The notes below the pieces were generated by a model. That model worked only from the letters and a program-made list of their open reading frames with translations, did no database searches and was not told the DNA's origin. Shown in pieces: positions 27,394 to 36,072 of a stretch of DNA of 37,393 nt (position 1 is the first letter of the stretch; each line of letters begins with the position of its first letter). The stretch is from Myxococcota bacterium (GTDB taxonomy: Bacteria > Myxococcota_C > UBA6777). The DNA is taken from positions 1 through 37,393 of the forward strand of contig JAKLKB010000089.1 in NCBI GenBank assembly GCA_023150835.1, in the 5' to 3' direction. Both the position numbers and the translations under genes were made by a program.

Positions 27394-27549
27394 TCCACAC
27401 CTGCTTTCCACTTCCGCTCCTCCCCGACCCTGCCTTCTCTCCACGTCACAACACAAACGCCCCTCTTGCCTTGCACAACGAATCATCCCAAGATACCGAT
27501 ACTTCCATCTCCACAGATGGCTGCCCCCTTACTGCAAAGGCCGACACCG

Positions 27550-29759
27550 ATGGACCTACACCGCAAACAACGATCCCTCCCAACACCTCGACCTTTTTTC
27601 ACACTCGCCGCGATCTGGCTTGCGCTCGCTGCCATGCTTGTTTTCCCCCATGCTTGCGTTGTCTCCAGTCCTTCCGTCGCCTGCCTCCCTTGCCCTTGCG
27701 CAAACGGCCTCACCCGCGCAAACGGCCTTTGTGTCCCCCCCGAACAACAAACCAACCCGCTCTCCTTTTGCTTTGCCGACGGCCAAACCTCGGACGGACT
27801 CCTCACAGAACCCCTCCATCAAGAAACCACACCCAAAGATGCCGCCACACCCGAAGAGATCACTCCCTCCGAAGATGCCGCCACACCCGAAGAGATCACT
27901 CTCTCCGAAGAGGCCACCACACCCGAAGAATCCACCCTGATCGAACCCAGCCCCGAAGAGGCCACCACCGAACCCAACCCAGAGATCTCCCCAGATACCC
28001 GTTGCACCGATGATACAGACTGCCCCACAGGCTCGATCTGCCTCACCGAAAAAGGCGAATGCGCCCCAAGCGAATGCACCCCAACTCGCCCATGCAACGG
28101 CTTTCTCGCCTGCATCAACGGACGCTGCCAAGCCTGCCAAGTCGACGATCAATGCAAACCTCGTGGCACAGGGTATTTCTGCCTCGATGGGATCTGCATC
28201 CGCAAAGCAGTCCTCACCAACAACGTCTATGCGTGGAGCGACGGAACCTACGCCTCCGATTGTATGCAGTATCGCTACCCCACCCTCGGCTTTGAACCCG
28301 CCTCACAAGACGGCGTCTACCGCATCCAACCTCCCGGTGAATCCCCCTTCCTCACCCACTGCATGATGCGCTACGCAGGTGGCGGATGGACCTTAACTTT
28401 ACGCATCGACGGCCAAAAACAAAACTTCTCCTACAGCGAACCCCTCTGGACCAACCGCAACTCCACCGCCAACATCGCCTCCCCCGACGCCCTCGCCAAA
28501 GAAGAAGTCAAACCACCCAGCTATTGGAGCCTCCCCTTCCAGCAAATCCTCCTCCACAACGCTTCCTCCCCCAAAAGCACCCCCTTGATCCTCAACGCTA
28601 CCGCCGCCTCAACCCTCGCTTNNNNNNNNNNNNNNNNNNNNNNNNNCCCAACAACACAGAACTCCCTACATCCCCCACTTCCACCCCCCCCCAACCTCCC
28701 CGCAGCGCTTGGCGCGCCTTCTTCCCCAAATCTTCCCTCCAAAAGTACTGCAACCAGATCTTCGTCAACTTCTCCGCCACCGACCTCAACGCCTCTTTCG
28801 TCAACCTCCGCCTCGGCTTTGTCACCGATGGCGACTCCACTTGCAAAACACCCAACGGCTTTATCGGCATCGGGGGCCGAAGCCGCTTGCTCCCCTCGAT
28901 CTCTGCCGGAAACCTCTGCACCAACTCCAGCTCTTGCGAAACCAACGACACCACCAAACCCGCCTTGATCGGCCTCTATATCCGCGATCTCCCTCCCATC
29001 AAATCCACCCTCAAGCGCGTCCTCGGTGTCCTTCAGCCCTCCACAGGCCCCATCCCACGCTCCTGCCTCGCTTATCGTATGCCCCCACACAACCACACCA
29101 ACAACGACAACTATTGGATACAGCCCGCCAACTCCCCACTCCCCATGATCACCTTCTGCGAAATGACCCGACACGGCGGCGGATGGACCGCACTCCTCAA
29201 AACCAACAACACCGCCCAATTCGCTTATGACTCCGCCCTCTGGACCAACACCGCCACCCTCAACGAAAGCCCCACCGTCAACCCCGTATTCACCGACGCC
29301 TACAAACTCAACACCTTCCACTCCTTTCCCATCGAAGAACTTCTCGTCAGCCTACACAACACCAACTCCTCTGCACTCTACGTCAACTACTTCTCCTTCC
29401 TGTTTTCGGCCTCTTCCATGCTCAACGCCATCCAAATCCCCCGCCGCTTCGACAACGAAGACCCCAGACCTTGGCGCGACCTCCTCCCCGATACCAACCT
29501 CCACTCAGGATGCACCCAGATCGGCACCACCCTCACACCCGCCGCCAACAACAACTACGCTCATCTCCGCCTCGGCTTAATCGCCGCCCCCGATCAACCT
29601 CTCCTTTGCACCATCGCCAGTTCCTACATCGGTCTCGGAGCCAAGCTCTCCGCTTGCAACGTCAACAACGCCCCATCCACCGGCCATGCCATCGGTTGCA
29701 TTACGACCGGTGCCGCACCCCAAATCACCCCCGCCACCGGCTACCTCTTCGCCCGATAA
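27550..29759 (+). CDS. Putative lipoprotein with acidic linker, Cys-rich repeats and two fibrinogen-like domains (spans the assembly gap)
   Basis: Hydrophobic leader ending PHAC; Cys-rich modules; 'DGVYRIQP...THCMMRYAGGGWTL' before the gap and 'YWIQP...TFCEMTRHGGGWTAL' after it. The frame changes only across the N run. Confidence 0.75.
27838..27930. repeat. 36-bp tandem repeat (about 2.5 copies) encoding an acidic linker
   Basis: DAATPEEITPSE-DAATPEEITLSE-EATTPEE. Confidence 0.85.
28622..28646. other. Assembly gap (25 N)
   Basis: Run of N in the sequence. Confidence 1.
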
Positions 29760-32297: not shown

Positions 32298-32383
32298 ATC
32301 CCATCCAACGATCATCGCCGTACCCCCAACAACCCGTGTTCGCGAACCTTCAAGCGGCACAGTCGCTTGTGTGAAAAGCGCCT

Positions 32384-32527
32384 ATCCACACCGCCAACAC
32401 GGGGTCAAGGGGGCAAATCTGTCTCTGCCGCATTGCAAGTCAAGGCAAACTCGACGCCTCATCCACACCGCCAACACGGGGTCAAGGGGGCAAAGCTCCC
32501 TTGTGGGGTGTGGGGTGCCAACCCACA
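32384..32527. repeat. Two 34-bp direct repeats with REP-like GC hairpins
   Basis: ATCCACACCGCCAACACGGGGTCAAGGGGGCAAA at 32384-32417 and 32461-32494; the second copy extends into hairpins CAAGGGGGC/GCTCCCTTG and TGTGGG/CCCACA. Confidence 0.8.
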
Positions 32528-32651
32528 AACAACCTCCCACCGCGCAAGTCCGACAACAAGCGACACACCCGTTTTTTCCACAGCGAATCTCTGCGTGGTT
32601 TCCCAGCATCTTTATGATCACTTGAGATCAGATCACCATCGCTCACGTTTG

Positions 32652-32731: not shown

Positions 32732-33304
32732 ATGACCTCGACCCCTCTCCGACTACTCGGCATCTCTGGATCTCTCCGAAAGCATTCCCTCAACACCGCT
32801 CTCCTACAAGCCGCCCAAGAGCTTCTCCCCCCTGACGTTTCCCTCACCCTTCATCCCCTCAACGATATCCCCCTCTACAACGGCGACCTCGAATCCTCAC
32901 TCCCCGAAGCTGTCTCCGCCTTCAAACACGCCATCGCCCAATCTGACGGACTCCTGATCTCTACCCCCGAATACAACTACAGCATCCCGGGCGTCCTCAA
33001 AAACGCCATCGATTGGGCTTCTCGACCTGCCTACAAATCTCCCCTCGCTCACAAACCCGTCGGTATCCTCGGCGCAAGTCCCAGTCCCTACGGCACTGTT
33101 CGCGCACAAGACCACCTCCGACACGTCCTCGCTGCTGTCCATGCCTACGCTCTCCCCCATCACGGCCTCTTGCTTGGCGGCGCAAACCAAAAATTCGACG
33201 AACACCGCCACATCAACGACCCCTCCACCCGCGAACGCCTCCAAGTTTTTCTCGCTGATCTCGCCTCTTGGACTCGACGCTTCCGCACACCACACCACCC
33301 CTAA
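32732..33304 (+). CDS. NADPH-dependent FMN reductase (ChrR-like)
   Basis: GISGSLRKHSLN, IPLYNGDLE, TPEYNYSIPGVLKNAIDWASRP. Confidence 0.94.
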   Translation: MTSTPLRLLGISGSLRKHSLNTALLQAAQELLPPDVSLTLHPLNDIPLYNGDLESSLPEAVSAFKHAIAQSDGLLISTPEYNYSIPGVLKNAIDWASRPAYKSPLAHKPVGILGASPSPYGTVRAQDHLRHVLAAVHAYALPHHGLLLGGANQKFDEHRHINDPSTRERLQVFLADLASWTRRFRTPHHP

Positions 33305-33314
33305 CGCAACACAC

Positions 33315-33484
33315 CTTCCCTTCCCTTCGCTTCCCCTTCGCTTCCCCTTCGCTTCCCCTTCGCTTCCCCTTCGCTTCCCCTTCCGCTTCCCCTTCGCTTC
33401 CCCTTCGCTTCCCTTTCGCTTCCCCTTCGCTTCCCCTTCCCCTTCGCTTCCCCTTCCTTTTCCGTGTTTTCCGTGTTTTCCGTG
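33315..33484. repeat. Intergenic minisatellite: about 12 copies of CTTCCCCTTCG plus 3 copies of TTTTCCGTG
   Basis: Directly visible tandem units between convergent genes. Confidence 0.95.
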
Positions 33485-33513
33485 GACTCTTGGCCCCATC
33501 AAACCAGCCGATA

Positions 33514-34086
33514 CTACGGTCTTTTTTTGCAAGGGATCATTCGGCATTGCGTTTCGCAGACCGCGCCTTGCGCGATACAATGCGGCTTACATACCACGTT
33601 ATGCACGATGCAATGAGGCTTGCACACCGCTCCTTGTACGATGCAATGGCTTTTGCACACAGCGTTTTGGATCTCGCAGTGGGGTTTGCAGATCAGTTGA
33701 CCGGGGATGCAATGGAGTTGTTGACACTTTTTGATACAGCCTCGGCGGATCTTCTTCGAAAGTGCGATCGGACCAAGCGCAGCGATACAAGCCGCTACAC
33801 AACCCGGTTTCGAGACGGTTTTACAGATTTGGTTCCCCCGCTTACAGATCTTCCGACACACCCGCGTCCCGCCGCTGCACACTTTTTTGCACACCTGTTG
33901 GCCACCGCTGCACACTCGATTGCAAACGCGACTCCCTCCGCTACACACGTTTCGGCACACCTGCTGCCCTGCCCGACAAACCTTTCGGCATTCCTTACAC
34001 ATCTTCGGAAATGGACCCGCCTCTGCCACCCCACCCCAAAACAACCACGCACAAACCAACGCTCCTGCACTCCACCACTTTTTCAT
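33514..34086 (-). CDS. Secreted cysteine-rich protein with 11-residue (C-x3-C-x6) repeats
   Basis: AAGGAG SD, signal peptide MKKWW...AEA, 28 Cys in the predicted mature chain. Confidence 0.85.
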   Translation of the reverse strand: MKKWWSAGALVCAWLFWGGVAEAGPFPKMCKECRKVCRAGQQVCRNVCSGGSRVCNRVCSGGQQVCKKVCSGGTRVCRKICKRGNQICKTVSKPGCVAACIAALGPIALSKKIRRGCIKKCQQLHCIPGQLICKPHCEIQNAVCKSHCIVQGAVCKPHCIVHNVVCKPHCIAQGAVCETQCRMIPCKKRP

Positions 34087-34230
34087 CGCCCGCTCCTTCA
34101 AAAATGAAATAGATCGACCCGCTCGCCCGGAAGCGCTCCCGAACGACCGCAACCATGCTACGTTGCTCTCATGGATCGCTTGTCAGACGCCCCTTGCCGA
34201 TGGTTATTCACCTCCCGCCACAAAGCACCC

Positions 34231-34259: not shown

Positions 34260-34317
34260 CGCGCCGTTAGACGCCTTTCATCCACCCACGACCGCCTGAC
34301 CTTGTGCGAGGATCACC

Positions 34318-36072
34318 ATGCCCGATAGAATCAACCACCGCCCCAACCTCCCACCCATCACCCAGCCCTCCACAAGCCACACCTCTCCTACAAACAACAC
34401 CTCTCCTACAAACAACACCTCTCCCACAAGCCACACCTCTCCCACAAACAACACCACTCCCACAGGCGGCATCACCGCCGAGATGCAACGCACTCTCGGA
34501 CTTGCACAAGCCAACCACACCTCCCCTGTCCTCAAAACATGGTTTGCCCCGTACGAAGACACCCGTAAGCCCGAACTTGCCCTTCTTGACGAAGTGATCG
34601 CCGCCCGAAAAGCCGATCCCCGCACCTTTCAAGAAGGCCAAAACCCCTACAAGATCAACTACGCCGTCTACAACATCTCCAGCCAAGAGATCCTCGAAAA
34701 ACTCGCCGAAGCCAACCGCGCTGGCGTCGATGTCCAAGTCCTAATCGAAGAGGACCAACTCGACCCCAAAAAAACATGGAACGACGGCGATGACTACTTG
34801 ATCCGCAACGGCTTTGAATTCGCCCCCGATCACAAACAGCTCACCCCCGAAGAACGCCACACCGCCGACCTCATCGGCATCAAAAACTCCACCCTCATGC
34901 ACCTCAAAACCCGCATCTTCGAGTACCCCGACCCCCAAACAGGCGATCTCAAACAAACCGTCCTCACGGGCTCGATGAACCCGGGCGAAAGCGCCGTCCA
35001 CAACGACGAAAACCTCATGCAGATCAACGATCCCCGCGTCGCTCGCCGCTACATCGAGATGTACGAAGCCGTCCGCGACGGCAAAGAGATCAAAAACGAA
35101 TTTGACCCCCAATCCCCGATCAACGTGATGTTCACAGGCGCACCCGTCAAAGACGGCCAGTCCGTCACACGCCAGATCTTCAACATGATCGACCAAGAAA
35201 AAGAAGCCATCTTCCTCAGCGTCTTCACCCTGCGCAACCTCACCACCGACTCCGACCGCCAAAATCTCGTCGACAAACTCAAAGCCGCCCACGATCGCGG
35301 TGTCCCCGTCGTCGTGATCACCGACAAAAAACAATCCGACGGCGTCGACGCCCAAGGCAACCGCACTTTCAGCGACGACCAGACCGAAGACCTCCTCCAA
35401 AAAGCAGGCATCCCCACCTACGAAGCCCTCAACCCTTCGGGGCCTTTCAATGCCATGCACGCCAAAAGCGCCATCTTCGGCCTCACCGACATGAAGGTGA
35501 TCACCGACACAGGAAACTGGACCAAAGCCGCACTCAGTGGCCGAGGCTCCCGCTACGCCCAAAACGAAGAATCCTATCTCTTCGTCGACTCTGGCAAACT
35601 CGACAACAACCAAACAGGGATGCGCTACCTCGGAAATTTCTTGAATCTCTTGCGCGCTTATGCCCCCCAAAATCCCGACCAACCCGCAGCCGAAGAACTC
35701 ATCAACAAACTCTCCAGCCATCCCGCATGGCCCCGTGTCAACGTCGACTTCTCCGTCATGGCGCACACCTTCATGGGCCAAGATGTCTATATCACAGGCA
35801 ACCATCCCGCCGTCGGCAACTGGACCCAAGACGGTCCCGGCCTCAAACTCAATACCAGCCCGGGACGTTATCCTTTTTGGGAATCAGGCGGGGCCTTGGA
35901 ACTGCCCTTCGGTGCGCAGTTTGAGTACAAGATCGTCAAGCGCGAACCCAACGGCTCCCTCCAATGGGAAGCCGGACCCAACGCCTTCTTGATCGTCGAT
36001 CCCACCGATATCCGCTCCGGCCAAGGCCTCGGCAACACCCTTCTGCGTTCCGACGACTTCACACCCCCATGA
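34318..36072 (+). CDS. Phospholipase D superfamily protein with C-terminal CBM20 starch-binding domain
   Basis: Two HxK motifs (MHLKTRIFE...TGSMN; MHAKSAIFG...DTGNW). C-terminal 'GQDVYITGNHPAVGNW...YPFW...FEYKIVK...WEAGPN' matches CBM20. Confidence 0.85.
   Translation: MPDRINHRPNLPPITQPSTSHTSPTNNTSPTNNTSPTSHTSPTNNTTPTGGITAEMQRTLGLAQANHTSPVLKTWFAPYEDTRKPELALLDEVIAARKADPRTFQEGQNPYKINYAVYNISSQEILEKLAEANRAGVDVQVLIEEDQLDPKKTWNDGDDYLIRNGFEFAPDHKQLTPEERHTADLIGIKNSTLMHLKTRIFEYPDPQTGDLKQTVLTGSMNPGESAVHNDENLMQINDPRVARRYIEMYEAVRDGKEIKNEFDPQSPINVMFTGAPVKDGQSVTRQIFNMIDQEKEAIFLSVFTLRNLTTDSDRQNLVDKLKAAHDRGVPVVVITDKKQSDGVDAQGNRTFSDDQTEDLLQKAGIPTYEALNPSGPFNAMHAKSAIFGLTDMKVITDTGNWTKAALSGRGSRYAQNEESYLFVDSGKLDNNQTGMRYLGNFLNLLRAYAPQNPDQPAAEELINKLSSHPAWPRVNVDFSVMAHTFMGQDVYITGNHPAVGNWTQDGPGLKLNTSPGRYPFWESGGALELPFGAQFEYKIVKREPNGSLQWEAGPNAFLIVDPTDIRSGQGLGNTLLRSDDFTPP
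34372..34461. repeat. 18-bp tandem repeat (5 copies) encoding T(S/N)(H/N)T(S/T)P
   Basis: ACAAGCCACACCTCTCCT / ACAAACAACACCTCTCCT-type units. Confidence 0.9.

Follow-up and report, generated by a model that had tools for sequence, protein, structure and literature searches.

A secreted bacterial protein with 28 mirror-spaced cysteines, a probable disulfide-stapled hairpin rod

What might a bacterium build from a small, strongly basic secreted protein whose cysteines are spaced almost alike from either end? The question is raised by a short gene on the minus strand of the window, a 37,393-nucleotide stretch of DNA from a Myxococcota bacterium (contig JAKLKB010000089.1). An earlier note, made from the letters alone, proposed a long antiparallel helical hairpin with a ladder of disulfides and a membrane-active tip. 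Here we ask which parts of that proposal hold, how the cysteines are likely to be paired, what fold this would imply and what the protein might do. The gene, its parts and its two neighbours are as follows, with residues numbered along the precursor and P0001 and L011 being a distant homologue and a strain copy described below:

33514..34086, minus strand: precursor gene, 190 residues; mature chain of 167 residues with 28 Cys, about 18 kDa, net charge +28
34093..34097, minus strand: Shine-Dalgarno-like AGGAG, recognised by sequence and kept in L011
34018..34086, minus strand: Sec-type signal peptide, residues 1-23, with a basic start, a hydrophobic core and an A-E-A cleavage motif (read by eye)
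33811..33999, minus strand: outbound (N) arm, C30-S92, with a CX2C start, five 11-residue CX3C-X6 repeats and the single C88; net charge +15
33757..33810, minus strand: apolar half of the tip, K93-S110, with C96, C100 and an LGP turn; 16 of 18 residues identical to P0001
33724..33756, minus strand: basic half of the tip, K111-C121, with C117 and C121; 2 of 9 non-Cys residues identical to P0001
33700..33723, minus strand: neck, Q122-G129, with the single C126 and a Pro-Gly hinge; 6 of 8 residues identical to P0001, or 5 of 7 non-Cys
33529..33699, minus strand: return (C) arm, Q130-C186, with four full 11-residue CX3C-X6 repeats, a fifth CX3C and a CX4C end; net charge +6
32732..33304, plus strand: NADPH-dependent FMN reductase, the convergent neighbour (PF03358, E 3e-40), found in one of five kin genomes; no sign of a functional link
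34318..36072, plus strand: PLD-like protein with a CBM20 domain, the divergent neighbour (PF13091, PF00686); no sign of a functional link

The AGGAG lies 6 nt before the ATG. The precursor contains 29 cysteines, one of which (C12) falls within the signal peptide; read by eye, the signal peptide has no twin-arginine motif and C12 lies outside any lipobox, and the signal peptide of P0001 has the same length and is free of cysteine. The mature chain is 17% Cys, with 31 Lys and Arg against 3 Asp and Glu, six His, a pI of 9.6 and neither Tyr nor Trp, so that the description of a secreted, strongly basic chain stands.

A strain comparison bears on whether the gene is real. A pattern scan of metagenomes confirmed one of 333 candidate stretches, L011, as a close strain copy (94% amino acid identity) with the same PLD neighbour. 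Between the two copies, 31 of 40 base changes fall at codon position 3, 27 of the 38 differing codons are synonymous, dN/dS is 0.10 and every cysteine is kept. On this comparison, 33514-34086 on the minus strand is a real gene under selection. A 279-codon open reading frame on the opposite strand (33268..34107, plus) can be set aside as a shadow ORF: a stop interrupts its frame in L011, and it has no Pfam match.

All or part of the locus is present in 20 sequencing runs from 7 studies, labelled mostly as activated sludge or wastewater. In an RNA-seq run (X3), contigs cover 33468-33801 and 33838-34087 with zero differences; both neighbour genes are covered as well, and the coverage may thus stem from DNA. 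Most of the gap between the gene and the PLD gene is uncovered in X3 and in X7, with coverage returning at 34286, whereas run X11, which is probably DNA, spans it; this is a weak hint of divergent transcription. No insertion or deletion is seen across the four runs compared. Run X15 leaves the gene uncovered, which proves nothing, and a scan for promoters and terminators finds nothing on the gene's strand.

The gaps between successive cysteines of the mature chain are 2,3,6,3,6,3,6,3,6,3,6,7,3,[16],3,4,6,3,6,3,6,3,6,3,6,3,4, exactly as first read. About the central 16-residue loop, with 14 cysteines on each side, 11 of the 13 gaps are mirrored. When the cysteines are paired in nested order, 11 pairs share a residue-number sum of 214, the two innermost pairs give 217 and the outermost gives 216. 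Shuffling the gaps yields p = 2e-5 for the mirror symmetry, a value that we discount because the null asks too little: two (3,6)n arrays will always come close to a palindrome, and 9 of 13 gaps match even when the arms are read in parallel. What is not trivial about the symmetry is that the two sides have equal cysteine counts, that they are in register and that they change in step in P0001.

P0001 comes from a phmmer search over 1.84 billion representatives, which gave 19 matches at E <= 0.001. Among the 17 that we inspected it is the only full-length distant homologue (168 residues, 49% identity, E 1e-27), with its own signal peptide; it forms a one-member cluster present on two contigs. A second match, P0017, is partial and is taken up below, and the other 15, inspected by eye, seem to be low-complexity matches or tandem repeats with no relation to the target. 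The mature chain of P0001 has 24 cysteines (12 + 12) with gaps of 2,3,6,3,6,3,6,3,6,7,3,[16],3,4,6,3,6,3,6,3,6,3,4. Each arm is thus one 11-residue repeat shorter than in the target while every irregular gap is kept, nine nested pairs have a constant sum of 190, and the net charge is +20 (arms +12 and +4). The prediction that the two arms change copy number in step is borne out in this single independent comparison, 12 + 12 cysteines against 14 + 14. The mature cysteine count is even in all three known sequences: 28 in the target, 28 in L011 and 24 in P0001.

The history of the arms can be read in part from their repeats. Tandem Repeats Finder reports one 33-bp array per arm, at 33857-33961 (N) and 33556-33648 (C). 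In the target, repeat units share 13-24 of 33 nucleotides within an arm and 7-17 of 33 between arms; the greater likeness within arms suggests that they were homogenised or expanded separately, yet they ended equal. The observation that the arms use different 11-residue repeats applies to the target and fails in P0001, where both arms share a CKxVC-like consensus and several pairs of N-arm and C-arm units are identical at 5-6 of 11 residues. This common consensus suggests that both arms may descend from one repeat.

Searches for known families agree with the initial impression that there is none to recognise. The target has no Pfam or NCBIfam match at E up to 1 and nothing meaningful in PHROGs, and P0001 gives two irrelevant weak Pfam rows only. 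A PDB sequence search with alignment A1 returns only two designed proteins (E 0.33 and 5.7), and one with the tip (residues 85-136) returns none at E up to 10. Neither the target nor P0001 has a usable match in the ESM Atlas, a blank that says nothing about absence or novelty. A word-index protein search with the whole protein and with residues 84-137 also comes back empty, but it missed P0001, which is present in the database, so its blanks set no bound on the family. Of the candidate stretches picked out by pattern scans, none is confirmed in GTDB genomes (two scans, with 45 and 107 candidates) or in viral contigs (51 candidates). The five kin genomes contain no full-length match; four of them are informative, and the closest, G001 (86% complete), is not: its contig begins within the PLD gene, and the genome lacks the FMN reductase as well. 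A tip-like tblastn match on contig C68 (E 1.7) was rejected, as it sits in an unrelated protein. By sequence, then, the target, its strain copy L011 and P0001 make up an orphan family of three.

A first decision concerns the chemistry of the cysteines. With 17% Cys, CX2C and CX3C motifs and six His, the protein could be imagined as a metal-thiolate storage or scavenging protein of the Csp or metallothionein kind, the alternative that the earlier note had kept in view. The Csp1/2/3 proteins are four-helix bundles in which about 13-20 thiolate cysteines line a tube, and some (Csp1/2) are periplasmic, according to the sections of PMC11672702 consulted; the target shares their cysteine-richness and motifs and differs from them, so described, in having no profile match, no conserved His and cysteines that are mirror-paired in even numbers. 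There is also no Pfam, NCBIfam or PDB match and there are almost no acidic residues, and where the target has His at repeat position d, P0001 has Val, Asp and Glu. The gene has no metal-handling neighbours. Its Sec-type signal would send the chain into a compartment with a VKOR/DsbA-type system: of the 20 Thioredoxin_4 matches in the host genome, two lie on an ORF that also matches VKOR. Taken with the signal peptide, this set makes disulfides much likelier than metal thiolates. The cysteines are very probably oxidised to disulfides, and metal binding is a most improbable reading.

The same host encodes several proteins that look like strings of DsbA domains: C128:49302-53261 (a frame of 1426 codons with seven Thioredoxin_4 matches), C40:8654-11389 (1084 codons, five matches), C83:12241-13290 (1218 codons, two matches) and C113:8976-10580 (the VKOR frame, two matches).

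The second decision is between nested and local pairing. Local bonds could close five CX6C loops per arm, with two bonds at the tip and C30 and C33 joined to C181 and C186, giving a ring of small loops or a solenoid. Such a scheme uses all 28 cysteines and gives a reason why C88 and C126 stand single; Gly or Asn lies near the middle of the six-residue segments, as in turns, and any number of repeats would be tolerated. It needs an extra reason for arms that are equal and in constant-sum register in both homologues, and it leaves unexplained the irregular mirror of P0017, which has the target's repeat unit. We regard local pairing as improbable and nested connectivity, with the chain forming a hairpin rod, as the likely arrangement. 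A chain of separate four-Cys hairpinin cassettes is disfavoured because each arm has an odd number of CX3C units (five) and changes by one unit per arm.

Given a ladder, the arms could be helices or strands, and structure prediction does not speak with one voice. With the single sequence, AlphaFold2 (mean pLDDT 49.8) makes the N arm a helix, at 66-79 over mature residues 11-50; with a three-row alignment (mean pLDDT 39.9) it places strands in both arms, at the VCxxVC units and with values under 50. The C arm is unresolved in either run. Both runs form the tip from two helices at a pLDDT of only about 50-56, with the helix break placed differently, and the basic half of the tip (K111-C121) is helical in both (about 55). 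The AlphaFold check suggested at the outset thus yields two runs of low confidence that disagree on the arms. Folding the two arms as separate chains (score 0.15, mark 0.32) gives evidence neither way, and a Foldseek search with the low-confidence model returns no matches at E <= 0.001.

The geometry of the rungs can be examined with rigid ideal backbones, coarsely optimised. In an ideal antiparallel helix pair 8-9 A apart, all 11 tested constant-sum rungs have Cb-Cb distances of 3-5 A, with an arm about 8.5 nm long. All 11 fit ideal two-strand beta geometry as well, with an arm of about 18.5 nm. A spacing control separates the two: the 4/7 spacing of the cysteines is the only one of 21 periodic two-step spacings that fits straight helices fully, while strands accept all 21. 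Heptad-like spacings (3/4, 7/7, 3/8 and 7/8) reach 50-75% in the straight-helix model, and supercoiling might rescue them, so that about 5 of 21 is a fairer count of helix-compatible spacings. Within this model, the 4/7 spacing belongs to the minority that suit helices.

The side chains give a mixed answer. The core positions of a hendecad are a, d, e and h, and it is there that Cys, Val, Cys and a small residue sit in the target. The hydrophobic moment of the N arm peaks at 98 degrees in both the target and P0001, where a strand would give 160-180, and the CX2C-X3C start follows a pattern that is generally associated with helices. The C arm is unlike a plain helix: three of its four CX3C units contain Pro, Val/Ile/Thr make up 25% of it, and its moment peaks at 66 degrees. 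Chou-Fasman averages fail to separate helix from strand.

In an alternative, the nested ladder is kept and the arms form a twisted two-stranded beta-ribbon of about 18-19 nm, kinked at the six-residue steps with their Gly and Pro, with the tip alone helical; a ribbon of this kind would be compatible with any function. The 11 rungs that fit strand geometry, the strands that AlphaFold2 places when given the alignment and the composition of the arms (21-25% Val/Ile/Thr, 13% Gly/Pro) all favour it. So does the partial match P0017, a secreted Pro/Thr-rich protein of 403 residues with no Pfam or NCBIfam family, which contains a CRxVC-SGG-xxVC unit (47% over 59 columns) in an inserted, irregular ladder of 10 + 10 cysteines with 8 of 9 gaps mirrored. 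P0017 is the closest partial match to the N arm, and it has low helix propensity yet the same 4/7 steps, which counts against helical arms.

The host genome supplies further ladders for comparison. A rough filter lists 302 signal-like ORFs with at least 10 cysteines, some of them spurious. One, on contig C32 (2075-2581, minus), encodes a secreted, basic (+14), Tyr/Thr/Arg-rich protein of 109 residues with 14 cysteines in a perfect mirror, 3,5,5,5,5,5,[8],5,5,5,5,5,3, which by its sequence looks like a seven-rung beta-ribbon ladder. Another, on C220 (26139-26762, minus; 201 residues, secreted, +29), has cysteines at a period of 10 on both sides of a central turn and is probably a long beta-ribbon ladder. 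Two more secreted basic proteins, at C226:35032-35622 (minus) and C194:43007-43519 (plus), use CX10C and CX3C steps; the C226 protein (period 11) has 9 + 9 cysteines with near-constant nested sums of 197-200 for eight pairs and is likely, judging from this pattern, to be a helical ladder. A genome of the same family (G004) encodes L004 (1264-1872), a secreted protein of 203 residues with 66 Lys and Arg, 9 + 9 cysteines and six nested pairs that sum to 225; it has CX3C-X6 units like a target arm (hhalign 82%, E 1e-5), a Lys/Ala-rich, helix-like composition and a purely basic tip. The small, secreted, basic Cys-hairpin, as predicted from these sequences, is a design that recurs in this lineage.

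That the host has clear ribbon-type mirror ladders (C32, C220) speaks for the ribbon, but these use even steps (4, 6 and 10) and are Tyr/Thr-rich, unlike the target. Among known peptides, theta-defensins, tachyplesin and protegrin are cationic beta-hairpin cystine ladders that fit 2-3 rungs into about 18 residues and have a tight turn and cysteines at even steps. The target resembles them in being cationic, in its predicted nested ladder and in a CX3C spacing of the tachyplesin type; it and P0001 differ in having 12-14 rungs, 4/7 steps and a 16-residue, probably helical tip. Since ideal strands accept all 21 spacings, a ribbon leaves the choice of 4/7 unexplained. We consider ribbon arms rather unlikely and, if there is a ladder, lean toward helical arms. 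The long antiparallel helical hairpin first proposed thus keeps the support of a spacing that fits a two-helix ladder, and is weakened by the conflict between the AlphaFold runs over the arms and by the fit of the beta-ribbon.

Conservation between the target and P0001 is distributed very unevenly. Of the 16 non-Cys residues in the apolar half of the tip, 14 are identical; the other two are Ala/Leu and Leu/Ile changes. In the arms only 20 of 73 are identical (N 12 of 40, C 8 of 33), and the contrast between apex and arms is significant (Fisher p = 1e-5). The arms retain their cysteines, the Val that precedes Cys and a net positive charge, and little else. The apolar apex is rich in Gly, Ala and Ser, is flanked by Lys93 and Lys111 and has a best 15-residue hydropathy of about 2.16-2.3. 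The centre of the nested pairing (residue 108-109) lies just past the LGP turn, which would leave an exposed apolar loop at the end of the rod. To judge by this pattern, the apex is the part that does the work and the arms serve as a spacer. The tip was described at first as hydrophobic and then cationic; the loop is as described and its hydrophobic half is conserved, whereas the cationic half is not, which counts against the explanation preferred below.

One use for such a tip would be as a specific protein-binding loop held on a spacer, for example a protease inhibitor, a channel or receptor ligand or a signal. The near-identity of the apex while the arms and the signal peptide diverge is what this would lead one to expect. 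Specific interfaces usually carry charged or aromatic residues, and the apex has neither; no partner gene co-occurs, and an inhibitor loop has no need of a 14-rung shaft. There is a precedent: in the alpha-hairpinins that inhibit trypsin, the two CX3C motifs flank the reactive site (PMC7191063). On balance, we find a binding loop quite unlikely.

The alpha-hairpinins are also the nearest structural comparison for the tip. In the part of PMC7191063 drawn on here, these secreted plant peptides (EcAMP1, VhTI, BWI-2c, Tk-AMP-X2, Luffin P1) have the motif C1X3C2-Xn-C3X3C4 with C1-C4 and C2-C3 paired and a loop connecting two antiparallel helices, and they are active, among other ways, as antimicrobials and protease inhibitors. 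The target has this motif as C96-X3-C100-X16-C117-X3-C121, and so does P0001. Against the plant peptides as described there, which have four cysteines and come from vicilin-linked or modular precursors, the target is bacterial, has 28 cysteines in one chain and a loop of 16 residues, and shows no sequence similarity to them. Its tip is thus predicted to work like an extended alpha-hairpinin, and the protein is not a member of that family. Another comparison is the nemertean neurotoxin B-IV, which the excerpted text of PMC6410017 describes as a disulfide-cross-linked helical hairpin of 55 residues with 8 cysteines. The target would share the secreted, cross-linked helical hairpin with it and differs in being three times longer, bacterial, built of tandem 11-mers and apolar at its apex, with no PDB or Pfam match and no hint of an ion-channel target. 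In the part of the open-access literature searched, we find no description of a bacterial hairpin with 12-14 rungs.

The surroundings of the gene can also be asked about function. Bacteriocin-type systems have adjacent immunity, export or processing genes; by Pfam, no immunity, export (transport) or processing gene adjoins this one, a point against an antibacterial role. Orthologues of the PLD gene in three kin of other genera have different upstream genes. The PLD-CBM20 protein itself (34318-36072) is Cys-poor and occurs in all three genera of the lineage. Its identity is 54-97% in four of the five kin genomes, and in the fifth there is just a paralogue at 34%.

Several features of the window lie outside the gene and are recorded here as such. 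Dispersed repeats at 32350-32415 and 32465-32530, between the DoxX-like and FMN reductase genes, have about 200 and about 480 blastn matches in the genome, and the second reaches a depth of 461 in run X3. The gap between the convergent genes is filled by an array at 33314-33491, in which 11.5 tandem copies of a pyrimidine-rich 11-bp unit precede a 9-bp triple repeat with dozens of occurrences across the genome; L011 does not share the array. Further away, 27466-29759 encodes a protein that looks secreted and combines Cys-rich segments with fibrinogen-C-like domains; it is split over two frames at 25 N (28622-28646), probably an assembly gap.

A stand-alone gene without an immunity neighbour is compatible with a structural or surface-active amphiphile. 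In that case the apices would associate with one another or gather at an interface with lipid or air, and the polycationic shafts would tie together the anionic exopolymer, DNA or lipopolysaccharide of a floc or cell coat. The Gly/Ala/Ser-rich, near-invariant apex resembles a packing surface, the host has several other small secreted basic Cys ladders with differing periods, and the runs containing the locus are mostly from sludge or wastewater by their labels. The gene is patchy, not being found in the four informative kin genomes, unlike a core coat protein, and the contigs give no sign of high expression. We judge an amphiphile of this kind unlikely.

Our preferred explanation, which we hold tentatively as a whole, is a hendecad-helix disulfide rod with an envelope-adsorbing shaft and a membrane-inserting apex. 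The chain would be exported through Sec as a free-standing protein, be oxidised after export and zip into a single antiparallel hairpin, with nested disulfides C100-C117, C96-C121, C88-C126, C81-C133 and so on to C30-C186 stapling the arms; the fold would in effect be a four-Cys helical hairpin extended to 14 rungs. The arms would be helices of 11-residue repeats, about 8-9 nm in length, with an inner face lined by Cys, Val, Cys and a small residue, and would serve as a stiff polycationic spacer whose sequence may drift freely while its halves stay matched in length. The basic shaft could adsorb to anionic cell envelopes, and the apolar apex could then insert into the bilayer, alone or after apex-to-apex oligomerisation, in an antibacterial or predation-supporting role. 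A membrane- or envelope-active (toxin) role is a possibility that we place somewhat short of probable, because plain lipid insertion needs hydrophobicity and not a near-exact apex sequence. That the in-step change of the arms comes from one homologue also weighs against the preferred explanation.

More speculatively, and to our minds doubtful as it stands, the protein could represent an undescribed class of effectors: length-adjustable helical needles of 12 to 14 rungs whose polycationic shaft docks on the envelope of prey or a competitor and whose apex enters the membrane, as one member of a wider repertoire of Cys ladders in this lineage, helical with period 11 and ribbon-like with periods 6 and 10.

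With three known sequences, rarity limits the reach of the finding. Disulfide-stapled hairpins are otherwise described as short plant or animal peptides with 2-4 bridges; a bacterial version of 12-14 rungs whose arms gain and lose repeats together would, if true, be a natural rigid ruler and would show how paired repeat arrays stay in register. The contrast between drifting arms and a near-invariant apex offers a direct handle on function. If the protein is membrane-active, it would be a new antibacterial protein scaffold from an uncultured sludge lineage; if it is structural, it would be a new kind of protein amphiphile.
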